Shown here: positions 40,933 to 48,379 of the stretch, one piece after another
Position numbering within the stretch: the first letter of the stretch is position 1
Layout of the letters: every line of letters starts with the position of its first letter
NCBI GenBank assembly: GCA_963719035.1
Contig: CAVRAO010000002.1
Span: 544,001 to 608,000 of the forward strand
Length of the DNA stretch: 64,000 nucleotides
Direction: 5' to 3'
From: Methanobacteriota archaeon
Lineage (GTDB): Archaea; Halobacteriota; Bog-38; Methanoflorentales; Methanoflorentaceae
Program-made: the position numbers and the translations under genes
Notes under the pieces: generated by a model
What the model saw: only the letters and a program-made list of their open reading frames with translations
What the model was told of the DNA's origin: nothing
Databases searched by the model: none

Positions 40933-41553
40933 TTATGATTGGACGACCACGGTATGTGCGACACGATCTCCCAAACGTTGTTTATCCTCAGATGACCAGA
41001 TAAGAACCGCCGCTAGGAGATATGGAGCAATGAAAGGGATCAAATCGATGATGCGCAGTATCGTGCGTGTTGCCGCCTCTGCATAGGAGATTGATGAATG
41101 ATCTTCCTTTCTCACGACTTTGATCTTAACGACCATTTTGCCGACAGTCTGCCCGTTCCATCCTTCGAGCACCGTAAAATAGAGGAATGCGATAATAACG
41201 TCGATCAGCATTAGTAACCCAAAGAGCGGACTTATTGTCACTTGCGCAGTTGCCGCGTCAATAGTGATTGTTCCCGCACCGGTGAAGCCTAGTAACCAAA
41301 AAACAACACCGAGGATGATGACATCAACGAGTTGCGCGACAAAGCGGATCGTGACGCCTTGGTAAGGCAGTACAGTAACAAAAGCTGTGGGTGGTTCGAC
41401 TCGTAGTGAGGGATTGTACGTCGGAGGGCCTTGTGGCTGCTGCTCGATCGGCGACGTTTTGCGCTTCAATGCCTCGCCACAGGCCACGCAGTACTCAGCG
41501 CCAGGGGAGGCAAGAGTGCCGCACAGACCACATTTTTCTTCGTCCACATCCAC
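40933..41553 (-). CDS. Zinc-ribbon + RDD family membrane protein (copy 1)
   Basis: CxxCG...CxxCG; IRFVAQLVD, GQTVGK, QRLGDRVAHT; GTG start after GAGGTG. Confidence 0.88.
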   Translation of the reverse strand: MDVDEEKCGLCGTLASPGAEYCVACGEALKRKTSPIEQQPQGPPTYNPSLRVEPPTAFVTVLPYQGVTIRFVAQLVDVIILGVVFWLLGFTGAGTITIDAATAQVTISPLFGLLMLIDVIIAFLYFTVLEGWNGQTVGKMVVKIKVVRKEDHSSISYAEAATRTILRIIDLIPFIAPYLLAAVLIWSSEDKQRLGDRVAHTVVVQS

Positions 41554-41594
41554 GTTTTTCACCTCGTTTGCTCTTGCTAAGCGACAGGGCGAGC

Positions 41595-41620
41595 ATTCCT
41601 TTTAACCTTTTCTTATCATT
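41595..41620 (-). promoter_or_regulatory. BRE/TATA promoter shared by the RDD paralogues
   Basis: AAGAAAAGGTTAAAAGGAATG on the minus strand; near-identical copies at 42335-42360 and 43203-43228. Confidence 0.6.
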
Positions 41621-41683
41621 TATCCTAAAATTGTATTTGCACCGCGCGATCTGACGCGAAGCGAATTTAACGTGACTCAATTG

Positions 41684-41710
41684 AAAAAAAGAAGAGGGGC
41701 CTTAGCCCCT
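41684..41710 (-). terminator. Hairpin plus T-tract after RDD copy 2
   Basis: AGGGGC-TAAG-GCCCCT then CTTCTTTTTTT. Confidence 0.7.
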
Positions 41711-42299
41711 ATTGTGCTCGCACTACGATTGTGTGTGCAACGCGATCGCCGAGACGCTGTTTCTTGTCTGATGACCAGATCAGGATTGCCCCGATGAGGT
41801 ATATGAAGATCCCGTCGATGATACGAAGGATCGTCCTTACAGCAGCCGCCCCATAGTCGATGGGTGAGCCGTCCGCCTCTCTAACAACCCTGAGCTTGAC
41901 TACCATTTTGCCGACAGTCTGCCCACCGTGACCCTCGAGCAGGGTAAAGTAGAGGAAAACGATTACCAGCTCCAAAGCGAGGATCGCCCAGTAAGTCGAC
42001 GTAATCGTAGCTGTGTTAGTTACTTGATCGACAGTAATAGCTGATCCGCCAAAGAGAGCAAAGAGTATGCTGCCGATAATCCCCAAAATAATACCATCAA
42101 TGAGAATCGCTACAAAACGGATGCCGACGCCCTGATACTGCATTTCGGCGCCTTGCGCTGCATACGTTGGAGCGGGCTGCGTCATAGCTGAACCTTCAAC
42201 TGGTTGTGACGCGGCGGCTAGCGGTGCGCCACAGCTCTCGCAAAATTTGGCATCTGATACAGCGGGAGTGCCGCACTGTGCACATTTTTCTCCTTCCAC
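41709..42299 (-). CDS. Zinc-ribbon + RDD family membrane protein (copy 2)
   Basis: CAQCG...CESCG; IRFVAILID, GQTVGK, QRLGDRVAHT. Confidence 0.88.
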   Translation of the reverse strand: MEGEKCAQCGTPAVSDAKFCESCGAPLAAASQPVEGSAMTQPAPTYAAQGAEMQYQGVGIRFVAILIDGIILGIIGSILFALFGGSAITVDQVTNTATITSTYWAILALELVIVFLYFTLLEGHGGQTVGKMVVKLRVVREADGSPIDYGAAAVRTILRIIDGIFIYLIGAILIWSSDKKQRLGDRVAHTIVVRAQ

Positions 42300-42535
42300 G
42301 TTTTTCACCTCCTTTTTTTAAATAATAGGGCTAACATTCCTTTTTAACCTTTTTCTTTCAAACCAACGCCGCAGCGAATTTTGACTTTTTAACTCATCGG
42401 GACTACTGCGCTTGGTCGTTAAGAAGCGCCTGTCATGACCGTCTATACCTCCAACACCAAAATGGCTGTGAGAAGAAAGGCGTTATCCGCTCCTTCTTCA
42501 ACAAAATGTAAAATCAAGAGCTCAACGCTATCCGT

Positions 42536-42558
42536 AAAAAGGGAGGGGCTACACCCCT
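42536..42558 (-). terminator. Hairpin plus T-tract after RDD copy 3
   Basis: AGGGG-TGTAG-CCCCT then CCCTTTTT. Confidence 0.6.
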
Positions 42559-43164
42559 TTACGCTTTTACTACTACCGTATGCCCTACACGATCGCCTAA
42601 GCGCTGCTTTTCTTCTGAAGACCAGATCAGGATAGCACCGAGTAGGTAGGGGATAAAGTACGGAATCTCGTCGAGAAATCGGAGGATCGTCCGGACTGCA
42701 GCTTGCGAGTAATCAATTGGTGCCCCATCTGCTTCTCGCACAACTTTGATCTTCACTGCCATCTTCCCGACGGTCTGCCCGTAATGCCCTTCGAGCAAGG
42801 TAAAGTACAACATAAATACCGCGAGGGAAACGAGCCCGCCCAAAACACCGGCAAACGAAAAGGTGACCGTACCGGATGCACTGTTAGTTATGACGGCGAA
42901 CGCGTTGAAGGGAGCTGACAATATGCTCGCGATGATCGCTATGATAACGGTATCGATAAGTATCGCGACAAAGCGAATGGCGACCCCTTGGTAGGGTGTC
43001 TGGGTATATGGCACGTACACACGAGGTGCCTGATACCCGGGCGCGGGAGCGAATGCAGGGGCAGAATGAACTGGTTTGACGGTAAGAGCCGCGCCACAAC
43101 CCTCGCAATATTTGGCGCCGGGTGACGTCACAGTGCCACACTGTGCGCATTGATTCTCGTCCAC
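42559..43164 (-). CDS. Zinc-ribbon + RDD family membrane protein (copy 3)
   Basis: CAQCG...CEGCG; IRFVAILID, GQTVGK, QRLGDRVGHT. Confidence 0.88.
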   Translation of the reverse strand: MDENQCAQCGTVTSPGAKYCEGCGAALTVKPVHSAPAFAPAPGYQAPRVYVPYTQTPYQGVAIRFVAILIDTVIIAIIASILSAPFNAFAVITNSASGTVTFSFAGVLGGLVSLAVFMLYFTLLEGHYGQTVGKMAVKIKVVREADGAPIDYSQAAVRTILRFLDEIPYFIPYLLGAILIWSSEEKQRLGDRVGHTVVVKA

Positions 43165-43439
43165 GTTTTTTTCACTTCCTTTAACTAAATCATAGGGAAA
43201 ATATCCCTTTTTAATCTTTTCTTACCATTCAATTGTGTCTCTTTATGCGGTTTGCGATTACGACTGCATTTGTTCTTCGATCACTCTGATTGTGTTTCAG
43301 ACTGGAATGACACTAACATCGTCATTTCTCTGCCCAAAATTTAAAGACACGAGGGCCGTAGTTGTGTTAACAGAAAGGTTAGGACCCACATCTTACGAAA
43401 GTACCGGTGAGTTCGTGAACACGAGAGAGGCTCCACCAA

Positions 43440-44033
43440 TCACTTGCTCACCACTACGGTGTGTGCTGCGCGGTCGCCTAGGCGCTGCATCTTCTCTGAT
43501 GTCCAGATAAAGATCGCCCCAATAAGATAATCGAACAAGCCGTCAATAATTCGAAGGACGGTACGCACCGCTGCTTCGCTGTAGTCGATCGGCATCCCAT
43601 CTTCTTCTCGCACGACCTTGATATTGAGCGCCATCTTGCCAATCGTTTGTCCATAGCGTCCCTCAAGCAGCGTAAAGTAGAGGAACCAGATAGCAAGTCC
43701 TATTAGGGATGCCAGAGCAATGGACCCCCACGCAATGGTTGATACGTTTTCAGAGACCGCCGTGGCGGCTACTGCTGCTGCAAGGAATGGCAACGCCACG
43801 AGTCCTACAATGATGCCGATTATGAAGTAATCAATCAGTATTGCTACAAAACGAATGGAAACGCCTTGGTAGGGTGTAGGAGCGCCTGTGTAATATGTAG
43901 GCGCCTGGTAGGCTAGGGGACCTTGTGCTGGCGTTTGCACACCTTTCGGAGCGATCAGAGCCCCACAACTCTCGCAATACTTAGCGCCGGGTGACGTCGT
44001 AGTGCCGCATTGAACGCATCGATTTTCGTCCAC
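43440..44033 (-). CDS. Zinc-ribbon + RDD family membrane protein (copy 4)
   Basis: GTG after GAGGTG; CVQCG...CESCG; IRFVAILID, GQTIGK, QRLGDRAAHT. Confidence 0.88.
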   Translation of the reverse strand: MDENRCVQCGTTTSPGAKYCESCGALIAPKGVQTPAQGPLAYQAPTYYTGAPTPYQGVSIRFVAILIDYFIIGIIVGLVALPFLAAAVAATAVSENVSTIAWGSIALASLIGLAIWFLYFTLLEGRYGQTIGKMALNIKVVREEDGMPIDYSEAAVRTVLRIIDGLFDYLIGAIFIWTSEKMQRLGDRAAHTVVVSK

Positions 44034-44271
44034 GTGATTCACCTCTTTTGTTAAGACTATGCTTTTTACTATTTCAAGCCTTCTTTTCGCTTTAGGATCC
44101 GAAAAGTGCTTTAGCGCGCCCCTAAAGCCGTTGAGCGTCGAGTAACCCAGGGGGGCTTCTAGCACCCATCTCGAAGCTTGTGTTTTAGGACGTCAGCGAG
44201 GTTTCATTTTACACCCACATACATCCACGACCGAGAGTACAGCGACCGATCACAAAGAGCTTGACTTCATA

Positions 44272-44315
44272 AAAACTTGACCAAAACTTGACCAAAACTT
44301 GACCAAAACTTGACC
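44272..44315. repeat. Perfect tandem repeat (AAAACTTGACC) x4
   Basis: Four exact 11-bp units starting at 44272, 44283, 44294 and 44305. Confidence 0.95.
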
Positions 44316-44532
44316 AGGTTTGCAAGCAGGTAAGCAATCGTATTAGTCGTATTCAGAATATGCCAGAGATTATCGTTTCATTTTTGCCCTCAAAATTCGC
44401 GGAACGCTGGTTATATCCCAACGGGCCAATCTTTTGCGCTTAAACAAAAATGCGGCACTTTCATTCTCGGGCTAGTCCCGAGACCACTGCGTCTTGCAGC
44501 GCAACGCACCGCGTACGGAGGGGTCTGAAGAG

Positions 44533-44748
44533 TCAGCCGAATTTTGGAGTAAACCGTTTGCCGTTGTCACCAGGATACGGCTCGGTGTGGCGAAAGCGAT
44601 TTTCCCATATCTCCATAGGTATCGAAGGAAAAGCCTGACAGACGCGAGGGCTAATGTAGTTCTTGCAGCTCAGACATAGCGGGACTTTTTTTTGTTTCAC
44701 GCTCATCTCATACGGTATTAGAAAGAGTGTTCGTCTTGTCCCGGTCAC
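44533..44748 (-). CDS. Small Cys/His protein coupled to the nifH-like gene
   Basis: CLSCKNY..RVCQAFP.IP.EIW.N...HTEPYPGDNG.RF; its GTG overlaps the upstream TGA (alternative ATG 44706). Confidence 0.7.
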   Translation of the reverse strand: MTGTRRTLFLIPYEMSVKQKKVPLCLSCKNYISPRVCQAFPSIPMEIWENRFRHTEPYPGDNGKRFTPKFG

Positions 44749-45599
44749 ACGGCTTTGGTCTTTGGCACGTGCTTCCTATATAGCTCTTCGAGCTCAGGCA
44801 ACTCCTCCACAGGCGTTGGGATCACTTTCACATCGTTTTCCTGCACCTTTTGCGCGAGCTCTCGGAAAATCGCCGCCTCCTTTGACTGGGGAGCGTGTTC
44901 GACCACAGCTCGGCCTTCAAGTTCACACGCCTGAATGACCGAACTGCGCGGAACAAATTCCACGAATGCGCTGCCCAACCGCTGGGCAAACGCAGGAACC
45001 ACTGCCCGTTCCAAGGCGTCATCGCCGTTACTGTTACAGATAATACCTGACAACCCTGTGTCGCCGCGGCGCGCAAGGCGCTGCACCGCCCGCGCGATGT
45101 TGTTCGCCGCATAGATGCTCATAAAACCTCCGGAACAAACGAGGTAGATCTCGCTTGCAAATCCTTCACGGATGGGCATCGCAAACCCACCGCACACGAC
45201 GTCGCCGAGCACGTCGTAGATGGCCACATCAATTTTAAAGGTTTCAAACGCCTTGAGGTCTTTCAGAATCTGCAGCGCCGTGAGGACCCCGCGCCCTGCA
45301 CAGCCGATTCCTGGCTCCGGACCCCCCGCTTCAACGCAGTAAATGCCGCTTGGCGTCTTGAAGATAATGTCGTCGAGCGATATAGCGTGCGCGTCCTGCC
45401 CGTGACGGAGCTTGTCTCTGTAGATCTCCAGAACAGCGGGAATGAGGTGCCCGCCTGCGAGTATCCTCGTTGAGTCTCGCTTGGGGTCGCAGCCGACCTG
45501 CATGACATTGACCCCACACTCATTGAGGGCCGCTGAGATGTTCGAAGCGATAGTGCTCTTTCCGATTCCTCCCTTACCGTAGATTGCGATTTGTTTCAT
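44745..45599 (-). CDS. Nitrogenase iron protein-like (NifH/NflH) reductase
   Basis: YGKGGIGKST, GCDPK.DST, EAGGPEPGIGCAGRG (C100), DVLGDVVCGGF (C136); GAGGAG RBS. Confidence 0.95.
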   Translation of the reverse strand: MKQIAIYGKGGIGKSTIASNISAALNECGVNVMQVGCDPKRDSTRILAGGHLIPAVLEIYRDKLRHGQDAHAISLDDIIFKTPSGIYCVEAGGPEPGIGCAGRGVLTALQILKDLKAFETFKIDVAIYDVLGDVVCGGFAMPIREGFASEIYLVCSGGFMSIYAANNIARAVQRLARRGDTGLSGIICNSNGDDALERAVVPAFAQRLGSAFVEFVPRSSVIQACELEGRAVVEHAPQSKEAAIFRELAQKVQENDVKVIPTPVEELPELEELYRKHVPKTKAV

Positions 45600-45612
45600 T
45601 GTGATGTCTCCT

Positions 45613-46968
45613 CTACCAGCGTGCCGCGTACCGCCGTTGCGTTGACCGCCACCGGTCGCTCCACTCGTTCTGGATGCACTCGAGCAGATTGAGGATGCCG
45701 CGGTAGCCGAAATATTCCCGATTGAGCAAGCGGAACTGCCTGACAGGGCGCACGACCTCGAAGATGTACGGCACGTCCAGCCCCTCGCTCGCGTGCCGCT
45801 CGATCGTGCTTCCGAAAACGACCCGCGGCCGCACAGCCTCGAGGTTTCTCCTTGTCGCGTAGACGTCAGTCCCGCACGCGACGCGGGGCGTGAGGCCAAG
45901 GTCGCACAATTCGTGTTCGAGCAGGCCCACGGCGTTGGGGTGTGCGGAGCGAAGGGCAACGAGCGCTGGTGTCAGCTCCATCTCCTCGGTGGCAAAACGG
46001 ACTAACGGGATGCCGACCGTGGCGTCGGCCACGATGGCTGCGGGGGTCCGATAGAAAAAGCGCGCTATAGGCCATCGCCGGCGACACGTTTCCGTGACCA
46101 TTCGTTCGCCGTCCGCGATCAAGCCCTCTGCAGCAGACTCCGCGTTGAAACGCTCGCCAAGCGCGGTGAGCCAACGTCGCGTGTTGGTCATGCCGATGGG
46201 GAGGGGTAATTCTGAACAAAGCGGTTCGACCTCAAAGGTGTCGGCGAGATACGCGACGGCTCTGTAGCCAGCGTCGTGGCTCAACTGCAGCACACCCTCA
46301 GCGGCGGCGACGTTCGCCAAATCGCTGAGGGGGGTATCGTGGGTGAGTGTGGCCACCACCTGAATGCCCAATCGAGAAAGAACGTGTTTTACCCACTCAA
46401 GATCGGCCATCCACGTCGGATTCGCATTGGCGTGCGGTGCTACGAGGCACACTGAGTTTGGGATCGTTCGGCGCGTTTCGGCGAGCGTGCGGAGCATCGC
46501 GTCGAGAGCGAGGTCAATGCCGTCGTATTGCGATCCGCGAAACCCTGCGCACTCGATAGGAATAATCTTGAAGTCAACCTTGGGCTGCATATCCTGACAC
46601 ACCGCGACGATGTCGTCGCCCACGATTTCTGGTCCGCAAGCACTCAGCACAAAGAGCGCTGAGATGTCGAGCTCTTTCGCCTCAAGGATCGTGCGCGCGA
46701 GGAGCTCTTCGCCCCCGTGGACGATCTCATCCTCACACAACTTGGTGCACAGCGTCGTCGTCTGGGCGTAGTCGCAGTCCTGCCAGGAAAAAGCGCCGTC
46801 AACGAGGTAATTGCACCCCTGCGGGGCGTGCGCGAGAACGGCACTATCGCTAACCCCCAATGCCGTTTGGGCGGCGCCGCTGAGAGCGCACCGCACATAC
46901 GGGTCAAGGCATGCATCGGTGGGCGTCGTGCGTACCGCACACGCCTCGTCAGTTTGTTTCGTTGCCAT
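45613..46968 (-). CDS. Nitrogenase component 1 beta-like subunit (NifK/NflK-like)
   Basis: C27 (RCAL), C52 (HAPQGC), C111 (SACGPEIVGDD), IVHGGEE.L, YFGYRG. Confidence 0.9.
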   Translation of the reverse strand: MATKQTDEACAVRTTPTDACLDPYVRCALSGAAQTALGVSDSAVLAHAPQGCNYLVDGAFSWQDCDYAQTTTLCTKLCEDEIVHGGEELLARTILEAKELDISALFVLSACGPEIVGDDIVAVCQDMQPKVDFKIIPIECAGFRGSQYDGIDLALDAMLRTLAETRRTIPNSVCLVAPHANANPTWMADLEWVKHVLSRLGIQVVATLTHDTPLSDLANVAAAEGVLQLSHDAGYRAVAYLADTFEVEPLCSELPLPIGMTNTRRWLTALGERFNAESAAEGLIADGERMVTETCRRRWPIARFFYRTPAAIVADATVGIPLVRFATEEMELTPALVALRSAHPNAVGLLEHELCDLGLTPRVACGTDVYATRRNLEAVRPRVVFGSTIERHASEGLDVPYIFEVVRPVRQFRLLNREYFGYRGILNLLECIQNEWSDRWRSTQRRYAARW

Positions 46969-48379
46969 AGAGCATCCCTCGGAAGAGTGTTGAGCGTGGG
47001 AGACGTTGGTTCTCCATGGCTTGTCTGAGCAGCGCGGCGATGTTATGAATGCCCCGAAAGCCGTAGTGGGGCAGGTACGCAGGGTTGAGGAGCGTGAGAT
47101 TCACCACCGGACACCCTGGATAACGGGCAGCGTTACCGAAGAAGATCGGATCGTTAAAACCCCGTACGATTGCTTCGAGCTCGCGCTCCGTCTCGCGCGA
47201 CGAACGGAAGCTCCCCAAACGGAAGAGACCTTTGGTAAGGATTACTTCGGGATTGACGCCGGTCTCTAACAAGAACTTGATGCTCGGCATCCGCTCCTTG
47301 ATCGTGTACGGGTGCACGTTAACGACGACCGGGTGGGCGCCGCACTCTTCGGCCATCCGTGCGAGGGAGAGGGCTCGAATGGGGCCGGGAAACTCTGATA
47401 TCTCGATAATAGCAGTTTTGCCCTCGAGCGTGTGTTGCATGTAATCAAGGTCCGGGCGTATCCGTTCGGTCTCGTCCCGTATCACTCGCTCAGCCTCCTT
47501 CTCCAAACCGAGCGGCCGTGCGATGCCCATAAGCCATTCCTCCGTCGCTGCAAGCCCGTATGGCTGCCCAGTCCTGCTGTACGGGATGCCGAAGCGCGCT
47601 TCCATGGCGTCGCCGAGCTTTTGTCCCCAGTCATAGCACCACGAGGCATTGAGTTCGACCTCGCGTGCCCGACGGATCTCTTCGACCGTGCACCCGCCGG
47701 CGATAACTGCGTTGATCTTGACGCCAACCGCGTGCAGCAGCTTTGTGATCTCGTCGAGGTCGTCGCTAAACTCGGTCAAAGAGGGGCCCATTCGCGCGCC
47801 GATGAGGTTGATCGTTGCCTTCCGCGTTGCTCTCGGAGGCTCCATCAGATCCATGATAAGCTCAAATGCGTCCTCGTAGCCGCTGCGGAAGTCGCCACCA
47901 AACCCCTCGCTGCGAAGCGCGAGCACCCGAGCGTGTACTAGCTTTTCGGCCTCGCGCGCAACTCTCTCGACGTCGTCGCCAATAATCCCCGAACAGCAGC
48001 AGGAGAGGATGACGATAAGGTCCGGATGGTAGCGCTCGTCGGCCTCCTTTACCGCTTCGAGGAGCTTCCCTTCGCCGCCATAGATGATATTCGTTTCATC
48101 TAGAGAGGTGCAAGCGGTCGGCTCGAGGGGAACGCCGCGGAATTCGCAGCATTCCCGCGTCCTCACGATATCGGAGACCCACAAAGGGCATCCCGTCGGA
48201 CCGTGCACGAGGGGGACTACGTGACGAATGCCACTTATGACATAAAACGAGGTAAAGAACTTGCACATGGGTGCGTGCGAGGCCTGCAGTTTCGGAACCA
48301 TCTCACCCCGTTCGACCTTCTTAACGAGCTGCTGCAGGGTCCCGTGAAAAACGATGTCGTCGCTATCGTTGTTGTTCAT
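46949..48379 (-). CDS. Nitrogenase component 1 alpha-like subunit (NifD/NflD-like)
   Basis: C39, C64 (HGPTGC), C128 (SCCCSGIIGDD), IIYGGEGKL, C248 (ASWC), PHYGFRG. Confidence 0.9.
   Translation of the reverse strand: MNNNDSDDIVFHGTLQQLVKKVERGEMVPKLQASHAPMCKFFTSFYVISGIRHVVPLVHGPTGCPLWVSDIVRTRECCEFRGVPLEPTACTSLDETNIIYGGEGKLLEAVKEADERYHPDLIVILSCCCSGIIGDDVERVAREAEKLVHARVLALRSEGFGGDFRSGYEDAFELIMDLMEPPRATRKATINLIGARMGPSLTEFSDDLDEITKLLHAVGVKINAVIAGGCTVEEIRRAREVELNASWCYDWGQKLGDAMEARFGIPYSRTGQPYGLAATEEWLMGIARPLGLEKEAERVIRDETERIRPDLDYMQHTLEGKTAIIEISEFPGPIRALSLARMAEECGAHPVVVNVHPYTIKERMPSIKFLLETGVNPEVILTKGLFRLGSFRSSRETERELEAIVRGFNDPIFFGNAARYPGCPVVNLTLLNPAYLPHYGFRGIHNIAALLRQAMENQRLPRSTLFRGMLYGNETN

Follow-up and report, generated by a model that had tools for sequence, protein, structure and literature searches.

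A nitrogenase-like D-K-H operon related to VnfE/VnfN-like pairs in a methanogen genus that has lost cfbC

We analyzed a nitrogenase-like operon located in a stretch of 64,000 nucleotides (hereafter the window, which means the whole of that stretch) from a Methanoflorentaceae archaeon, at positions 544,001 to 608,000 of contig CAVRAO010000002.1 in assembly GCA_963719035.1. The operon encodes an alpha-like subunit (A), a beta-like subunit (B), a NifH-like Fe protein (H) and a small Cys/His protein. We give about an even chance to the explanation that we favor, namely that it codes for a self-contained two-component ATP-driven nitrogenase-like reductase of VnfEN-like (maturase-like) ancestry. In such an enzyme H, with its P-loop and a pair of Cys to bind an inter-subunit [4Fe-4S] cluster, would take low-potential electrons and hand them to an alpha2beta2 core with ATP hydrolysis. 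A P-type cluster held by six Cys at the alpha/beta interface (alpha C39, C64 and C128; beta C27, C52 and C111) would receive them and pass them to a NifB-made [8Fe-9S-C]-type cluster on alpha-Cys248 and a ligand other than His442, for which His356 is a candidate, and this cluster would reduce a small substrate. In the genus of the source organism, the same Fe protein would also replace CfbC and drive CfbD in coenzyme F430 synthesis.

The four genes lie head to tail in the order alpha, beta, H and small open reading frame (ORF) (Table 1). They are tightly coupled, as an earlier first-pass annotation of the sequence had described: alpha and beta overlap by 20 nt, a gap of 13 nt separates beta from H, and H overlaps the small ORF by 4 nt. 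None of the NCBIfam equivalogs reached its curated cut-off for any operon protein. The best match of alpha was nifE (164.3 bits, cut-off 505.1), and its scores with nifD, ANFD and VNFD were 126.2 (653.55), 77.7 (873.8) and 73.1 (823.1), respectively. Beta scored 40.2 bits with nifK (427.3) and 29.8 with nifN (326.8), while H scored 350.3 with nifH (394) and 344.1 with the CfbC model NF033200 (402). The CfbD model gave 47.5 bits for alpha and 29.6 for beta against a cut-off of 268.4, and the operon proteins were far under all cut-offs of the BchN/B/Y/Z and BchL/X hidden Markov models (HMMs). The Bch scores ruled out DPOR/COR (group V), and the CfbD scores, together with the two-subunit core, ruled out CfbD as the identity of alpha or beta. 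A nitrogenase made of NifD, VnfD or AnfD with NifK was ruled out by the HMM scores, by the absence of His442, Gln191 and His195 and by the tree position, both described below.

Table 1. Genes of the nitrogenase-like operon, with positions in the window.
Gene product	Position	Strand	Evidence
Alpha-like (D/E-like) subunit A, P0001, 476 aa	46949..48379	minus	PF00148, 2.7e-72
Beta-like (K/N-like) subunit B, P0002, 451 aa	45613..46968	minus	PF00148, 2e-75
NifH-like Fe protein H, P0003, 284 aa	44745..45599	minus	PF00142, 2.5e-95
Small Cys/His protein, P0004, 71 aa, GTG start	44533..44748	minus	Coding by codon-position bias; loci L013-L019 and L091

Phylogenetic analysis placed both large subunits next to VnfE/VnfN-like pairs. 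Among 1.84 billion representatives, the alpha family corresponded to one cluster at 50% identity. The next full-length matches were P0125 (38% identity, 3.5e-106) and P0126 (36%, 2.1e-96), after which significance dropped to 2.8e-54. None of 20 diverse representatives drawn from the top 150 reached the NifD or NifE cut-off, so the neighbourhood of the family consists entirely of nitrogenase-like proteins. In an IQ-TREE phylogeny of 61 D/E-like sequences rooted on CfbD, the family was supported at 100/99, and it formed a clade with the VnfE-like proteins and P0125 at 99/99. The Nif/Vnf/NifE clade and the Mar-like clade, the latter anchored on P0221 (453 bits to 9fmg_A/9d9u_A), fell outside this group. 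A quick tree also separated the NifD/VnfD/NifE clade (SH-aLRT 99), and canonical NifE did not group with the family. The beta tree (33 rows) joined the family to VnfN-like proteins (SH-aLRT 95). Alpha was 38% identical to a VnfE-like protein across 474 aa, and beta 39% identical to a VnfN-like protein across 425 aa; both pairs align collinearly over their whole length. The motifs SHxxPCKF, G[DE][FY]RSG, GGC, C.D.G and N.HP[YWF] were common to both groups. The first-pass annotation had set the operon apart from Nif/Vnf/Anf, NifEN, CfbD, Bch and Mar, and the HMM scores (for NifEN, by cut-off) and trees agree. When compared with reference families in trees, the operon indeed stands outside Mar and Nif/Vnf, but its nearest relatives are scaffold pairs of VnfE/VnfN type and not catalytic D and K subunits.

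The nature of these relatives was read from their gene context. When metagenomes were scanned with the sister clusters, the 80 loci retrieved were almost all of the P0126 family, although P0125-like loci were also sought, and an ESM Atlas query with P0138 gave no identity for the neighbouring clade. The gene order in the 42 loci over 12 kb in length was H, two P-II genes in some, genes for proteins of 465, 120 and 461 aa, a P0126-like gene and a 450-aa partner, often with NifB and a NifV-like gene next. In one of these loci (L113), the scores of NifH (464), VnfD (972.8), VnfG (166) and NifB-NifX (489) were over their cut-offs and that of VnfK (862.7) was just under 873.95. The VnfE-like sister scored only 164.4 on the nifE model, and it is because of its synteny with VnfD, VnfG and VnfK genes that the P0126 family is classified here as VnfE-like, with a VnfN-like partner. 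Metagenome contigs L110-L183 carried whole V-nitrogenase clusters (vnfH, in some a pair of P-II genes, vnfD, vnfG, vnfK, the E/N-like pair, nifB-nifX and a nifV-like gene, often with a NifA-like activator upstream) in which a divergent vnfE/N-like pair, far under the NifE and NifN cut-offs, lies between vnfK and nifB. These pairs are the closest relatives of the operon, and both keep the six Cys and the shared motifs; they differ in that the VnfE/VnfN-like pairs adjoin VnfD, VnfG and VnfK, whereas the operon comes with an Fe protein of its own and, in bacteria, with a NifB as well. Passages of PMC8890362 describe "early diverged VnfE clades" and trace nitrogenases to a maturase-like ancestry, and according to a passage of PMC12176620 both the position of VnfE/N and its cluster content are unresolved.

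The residues that could hold metal clusters were compared in an L-INS-i alignment with NifD and VnfD references that both pass their HMM cut-offs. Alpha C39, C64 and C128 and beta C27, C52 and C111 aligned with the P-cluster columns of NifD, VnfD, NifK and VnfK, and alpha C248 with the Cys275 column. At the His442 column, NifD reads MHSY, VnfD GHAY, operon alpha LTLL, the VnfE-like sister LNAI and true NifE FNH. The Gln191/His195 loop of operon alpha is GDFRSGYE, aligned as -DFRSGYE against VSQSAGHH of NifD. These comparisons bear out what the first-pass annotation had drawn from manual alignment, that is, six P-cluster-type Cys and a Cys275 equivalent with His442 absent and Gln191/His195 replaced. 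NifD, VnfD and Mar-like sequences have one residue more in this loop, and the short form also occurs in NifE, in VnfE-like proteins and in a 396-aa paralogue encoded on contig C12 of the source genome. Across 109 family sequences, H35, H53, H59, C64, C78, C230, C248 and H356 of alpha were invariant, and C39, C90, C127 and C128 were kept in 98-99%; beta C27, C52 and C111 were kept across the family. The sister clusters also keep H35, C39, H59, C64, C128, C230, C248 and H356. Since the three beta-type Cys are likewise kept in VnfN-like proteins and in true NifN of the sister genus, the six-Cys pattern does not separate an enzyme from a scaffold. H356 sits in a loop that aligns with the NifD FEFAH stretch, which we take to line FeMo-co, and on this alignment we propose His356 as a candidate second cofactor ligand.

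The source genome (2.19 Mb, 13 contigs, 91% complete, McrA present) was then searched for related genes. It holds four PF00148 genes: alpha, beta, CfbD and the C12 paralogue. The true CfbD, at C2:308113-309180, scored 501.2 bits, well over the cut-off given above. Operon H was the only PF00142 protein over cut-off. NifB is encoded on contig C12 (299 aa, 355.8 bits, cut-off 343.65). As the first-pass annotation had noted, neither nifB, nifE/N nor P-II (nifI) genes occur in the window; the matches in the genome lie on other contigs or far off on C2. The whole-genome search found no nitrogenase structural genes (NifD/K). The C12 paralogue (C12:148131-149318; locus L001, 1450..2640, plus strand) is a single gene with no K-like partner adjacent and keeps three P-cluster-type Cys, the Cys275 equivalent and a GDYRSGY loop. 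Of the 401 genomes sampled from the phylum, 37 have it, as do 12/12 of the window's own family, and it could be another user or carrier of the NifB cluster.

The family to which the operon belongs is spread over archaea and bacteria. The best 120 proteins in a word-index search had 65-90% identity, and their source names included Methanocella paludicola SANAE ("nitrogenase associated protein"), Methanoregulaceae, Methanoculleus, Bathyarchaeota and Dehalococcoidia; the protein of M. paludicola, a cultured methanogen, is 80% identical. The species genomes contained 94 stretches coding for a relative, from which 80 loci were retained, 54 archaeal and 26 from Chloroflexota by record title. Carriers were records labelled Methanomicrobia, Methanoregulaceae, Methanocella or Methanothrix, Methanolliviera, Bathyarchaeia and Chloroflexota, that is, archaea other than the Methanobacteriales, and bacteria other than the Firmicutes, that the first-pass annotation had named. 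In an even sample of the phylum, the family was found in 20 of 401 genomes and 10 of 127 genera, and in the window's own class in 15 of 24 genomes. Most compared genomes are incomplete metagenome-assembled genomes (MAGs), and absence means not found in those searched, except for closed chromosomes.

Gene adjacency was counted by tblastn at loci with sufficient room. B followed A at 42/43 archaeal and 21/23 Chloroflexota loci, and H followed B at 41/41 and 16/17. A NifB-like radical-SAM gene (~275 aa) was found within 1.6 kb after H at all 15 Chloroflexota loci with at least 1 kb there, compared with one of 37 archaeal loci, on a Bathyarchaeota chromosome. The NifB-like proteins scored 252 and 238 bits on TIGR01290, under its cut-off, and the next-best family was MoaA (61-69 bits). 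A TPMT/TehB-like methyltransferase gene lay within 1.6 kb after H at 7/37 archaeal loci; beyond these two genes, no other conserved neighbour was found around the operon in the compared loci. Several loci depart from the common layout. At Chloroflexota loci L071 (11567-12703) and L078 (11626-12681), an extra ORF of ~350-380 aa with a squalene-cyclase/prenyltransferase-type alpha-alpha toroid domain separates H from the NifB-like gene. In the Dehalococcoidales chromosome G006 (L075), decay of the cassette is possible, because H is cut to 127 aa and is followed by an unrelated 338-aa ORF with no NifB-like gene. Loci L068 and L090 have alpha without adjacent beta. A second nitrogenase-like system lies at G005:C1:678943-682153 on the Bathyarchaeota chromosome (L093), where one 739-aa ORF joins a NifH domain to an E-like domain and has another PF00148 match beside it.

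The 62-95% identity between archaeal and Chloroflexota copies, across two domains of life, points to strong purifying selection on A and B. The G+C content reaches 0.55 to 0.60 across the operon (44001-48000) against ~0.49 in the flanking 2-kb bins, and is 0.46-0.55 elsewhere in the window. Such a local rise is consistent with horizontal acquisition, but a strongly conserved gene set could have such a composition too. Since the family is patchy yet so similar across two domains, and given the rise in G+C, it would fit a cassette that moves horizontally under strong constraint.

The NifB linkage changes the view of the active site. The first-pass annotation had taken the lack of NifB as a distinguishing mark and had considered a different active-site cluster. 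The former does not hold, as there is a NifB on C12 and a NifB-like gene after H in the Chloroflexota loci, and for the same reason the case for the latter is weak. On this genetic evidence, a cluster of the NifB-made [8Fe-9S-C] type is more probable than a novel one, and an L-type cluster in the operon enzyme is rather probable. Thus, of the ATP-driven low-potential reductase with possibly another cluster that had been put forward, the three-component nitrogenase-like operon outside named families stands and the new cluster has little behind it.

NifB linkage also speaks for a rival reading, namely a cofactor scaffold, maturase or carrier. In this alternative, the NifB cluster would be loaded onto A and B, possibly altered there with the help of the Fe protein, and delivered to a client other than nitrogenase; in methanogens, McrC/Mmp7 of the MCR activation complex, with its L-cluster sites, is a possible client. 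Phylogenetically, A and B are sister to the VnfE/VnfN-like pairs of vnfH-(PII)-D-G-K clusters, and the operon resembles NifEN with its L-cluster in lacking His442, in having a Cys275 equivalent and the shorter, E-type 191/195 loop, and in its NifH and NifB partners. It differs from NifEN by having no nifE HMM match over cut-off, no N-terminal precursor-binding Cys and no NifDK client. Indeed, residues 1-38 of alpha contain no Cys, so that none lies N-terminal to C39, unlike in most maturases, which, as stated in a part of PMC8890362, have a precursor-binding Cys there (Cys48 in NifD numbering) that some VnfE lack. Clients are also missing in several carriers. McrC/Mmp7 matched in the source genome but not in the three Chloroflexota and one Bathyarchaeota carrier genomes tested, and two Chloroflexota genomes, one of them a closed chromosome, have no PF00148 gene beyond A and B. 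Moreover, a scaffold for nitrogenase is at odds with the source genome, which has no NifD/K, and with 17 of the 20 carriers in the phylum sample, in which no canonical nitrogenase alpha was found. The family is also restricted to 20 of 401 genomes of the phylum, in contrast with NifB, which part of a preprint (10.1101/2023.10.20.563283) describes as universal in methanogens.

Because the Chloroflexota genomes tested for McrC/Mmp7 or for other PF00148 genes had none, the D-K-H-B cassette has no visible client in those bacteria and would have to act alone, as a MarBHDK-type enzyme would. For this reason we prefer the reductase and regard a scaffold as unlikely. Some observations weigh against the reductase. 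Where gene context could be read, the nearest relatives proved to be VnfE/N-like pairs of the scaffold type, and the Gln191/His195 loop is as short as in E-type proteins; both points favor a scaffold. Moreover, no conserved neighbour points to a substrate, and it is an alignment that suggests His356 as a ligand.

With regard to the substrate, we considered dinitrogen first. The operon could encode a minimal N2-fixing enzyme, like Nfa or an L-cluster-loaded NifEN, which would provide ammonia in nitrogen-poor anoxic habitats. This would suit the 17 carriers without canonical nitrogenase alpha and the genus itself, in which NifD/NifE was found in just one of 17 other genomes, one that shows 6% contamination. 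Canonical nitrogenase was present in 3/20 carriers and in 68/381 non-carriers, which amounts to no association either way, and the three carriers have both systems. His442, Gln191 and His195 are absent, no nifI/P-II gene lies near the operon, the sole P-II gene of the source genome being on contig C8, and the nitrogen-control operator motif GGAA-N6-TTCC had no match in the window against 0.92 expected. There are precedents for such chemistry, since portions of PMC13245594 report N2 reduction by L-cluster-bound NifEN and by NifB, and PMC13474568, in the part on Nfa, implicates systems without key nitrogenase residues in N2 fixation. On balance, N2 fixation seems improbable.

An organosulfur reductase like Mar or Isr would cleave C-S bonds of volatile or sulfonated compounds to obtain sulfur. 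Once NifB is counted, the gene set is the same as in MarBHDK, and the methyltransferase found after H in some archaeal loci is of the TPMT/TehB type, which acts on thiols or chalcogens. Most group IV systems lie beside sulfur-metabolism genes, according to passages of PMC13753814, which also report no relevant MAR activity outside group IV-C. The operon family is outside the Mar clade anchored on P0221, no conserved sulfur-metabolism gene is adjacent, and no riboswitch was found near the operon in 8 Chloroflexota loci. We therefore consider this option quite improbable. Riboswitch, operator, nitrogenase-association and P-II tests were all null, and neither N2 nor organosulfur compounds have contextual support as substrates.

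The stand-alone reductase that we favor resembles Mar in several respects, namely a stand-alone B-H-D-K set, six P-cluster Cys, the Cys275 equivalent and no His at the His442 position. According to passages of PMC12552129, Mar contains an [8Fe-9S-C] cluster made by NifB/MarB. When we compared the operon alpha with Mar Cys270 and with His429 on the Mar-specific loop, C248 matched the Cys, in a HMMER alignment to 9d9u_A that spans only residues 49-325. The two differ in gene order, D-K-H-(B) versus MarBHDK (group IV-C; structures 9d9u/9fmg), and in clade, with ~112 bits to MarD, and sulfur genes are not adjacent to the operon. Nfa (group IV-A) and Isr (group IV-F), compared by description only, are likewise nitrogenase-like H-D-K systems without His442. 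PMC13474568, a 2026 review, lists groups IV-A to IV-F, V and VI in the part concerned, where Nfa comes with a NifB-like gene and Isr is divergent at the P-cluster Cys; by that description the operon differs from Isr, as its P-cluster Cys are all kept. In the same part, group VI NFL proteins have no Cys275 equivalent, at most 4/6 Cys and no NifB. Group VI was ruled out by C248, the six Cys and the NifB linkage.

CfbCD (group IV-B) occurs in the same organism and its Fe protein has a common fold with operon H, but CfbD is a single-subunit protein encoded elsewhere, and operon H is 44% identical to true CfbC. This brings us to the second finding, the loss of cfbC. In the source genome the F430 genes run cfbE-cfbD-cfbB, and cfbD is separated from cfbB by 128 bp. 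The same arrangement occurs on two closed chromosomes of the genus (G001/G025 and G002/G026), with cfbD abutting cfbB. In contrast, two genomes of the sister genus (G003 and G004) keep cfbE-cfbD-cfbC-cfbB, and sister-genus CfbC scored 403.2 and 412.2 bits against the cut-off of 402. In a class-wide search (E <= 1e-40), CfbC-type NifH was found in none of 18 genomes of the genus and in five of six genomes of the sister genus. Operon-type H was present in 13 of the 18; one of the 18, a MAG with 6% contamination, also had a canonical NifH, whose contig bears nifDK and nifE as well, and one had a partial second copy at a contig end. The two closed chromosomes each hold a single NifH homologue, which lies inside the operon. 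Thus, when the first-pass annotation proposed to look for separate nifB and cfbCD genes, nifB and cfbD were indeed to be found, but not a separate cfbC. In the sister genus, cfbC matches with one in-frame TAG were observed at G010:C1:337770-338558 and G013:C125:3156-3944; since ORF calling at locus L100 gave an intact 269-aa CfbC, the TAG may fall at the match boundary and not within the gene.

Because cfbC is lost, H is the only NifH homologue, and MCR and CfbD are present in organisms of the genus, operon H very probably also supplies CfbD with electrons there, judging by gene content. The argument for a CfbC-like working of H is one of gene loss and not of family membership. At 91% completeness, a cfbC missing from the source genome alone would not count, and the argument is carried by the two closed chromosomes. 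As the only NifH homologue, H would be indispensable in the genus, which raises the possibility that only the Fe protein matters and that A and B are relics travelling with an H kept for CfbD. We find this hardly credible. The 62-95% identity between archaea and Chloroflexota and the ligand Cys/His, which all or at least 98% of 109 sequences retain, speak against relics, as does the retention of A and B in the sister genus, which has cfbC, and in bacteria without CfbD. Nor did we see relaxed selection or frequent frameshifts in the genus, where one split copy occurred, in a 77%-complete MAG (G015).

The small ORF had no Pfam or NCBIfam match. After H, it was conserved only in the 7 nearest loci, with 79-88% aa identity, and its nucleotide differences were distributed 38/36/143 over the three codon positions. 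Because of this third-position bias, it is a real coding gene and a lineage-specific accessory. Metatranscriptome contigs (four runs from one study, mostly 90-95% alike) spanned 44533-48268 and bridged the H/beta and beta/alpha junctions. They are weak evidence for co-transcription of the operon in relatives, as DNA can be present in such libraries. None of these contigs lay upstream of 48348 or downstream of 44533, and no conclusion was drawn from this. A promoter and terminator scan gave results at chance level, with a promoter model not applicable to archaea. Directly downstream of the operon (window positions 40933-44165, minus strand), there are four tandem paralogues of RDD-family membrane proteins, three of them with an N-terminal zinc ribbon; this array is kept in the nearest relatives only.

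In the literature searched, there was no description of this cassette, of its link to VnfEN or of the loss of cfbC, and trees in supplements may include the clade. Archaeal nitrogenase-like pairs without cofactor ligands were already noted in 2012, in a passage of PMC3464626, and a portion of the preprint cited above mentions further nitrogenase-like proteins of unknown function in methanogens. The M. paludicola genome paper (PMC3146512), in the passages concerned, mentions only two nifH homologues. According to passages of PMC13753814, groups IV-A, D, E and F have partial or unknown function and were sampled from bacterial genomes.

If H does serve both systems, one Fe protein would work with two different catalytic partners, and the essential F430 pathway of an abundant methanogen group would be linked with a nitrogenase-like operon. 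Carbide-cluster nitrogenase-like enzymes do more than fix N2, as Mar and the clusters of the MCR activation complex illustrate. How catalytic nitrogenases arose from scaffold-like ancestors is still debated, and the family adjoins the early-diverged VnfEN branch. It is conceivable, and we give the idea little credence for now, that a "maturase-like" pre-nitrogenase is still alive here: an E/N-type alpha2beta2 protein that keeps the NifB-made L-type cluster and catalyzes with its own Fe protein, perhaps as low-rate N2 fixation in methanogens and Chloroflexota without a canonical nitrogenase, with the Fe protein also driving F430 synthesis in one genus. The compact D-K-H(-B) cassette is shared by archaea and Chloroflexota and occurs in the cultured Methanocella paludicola, which makes the question of nitrogenase origins testable at the bench.

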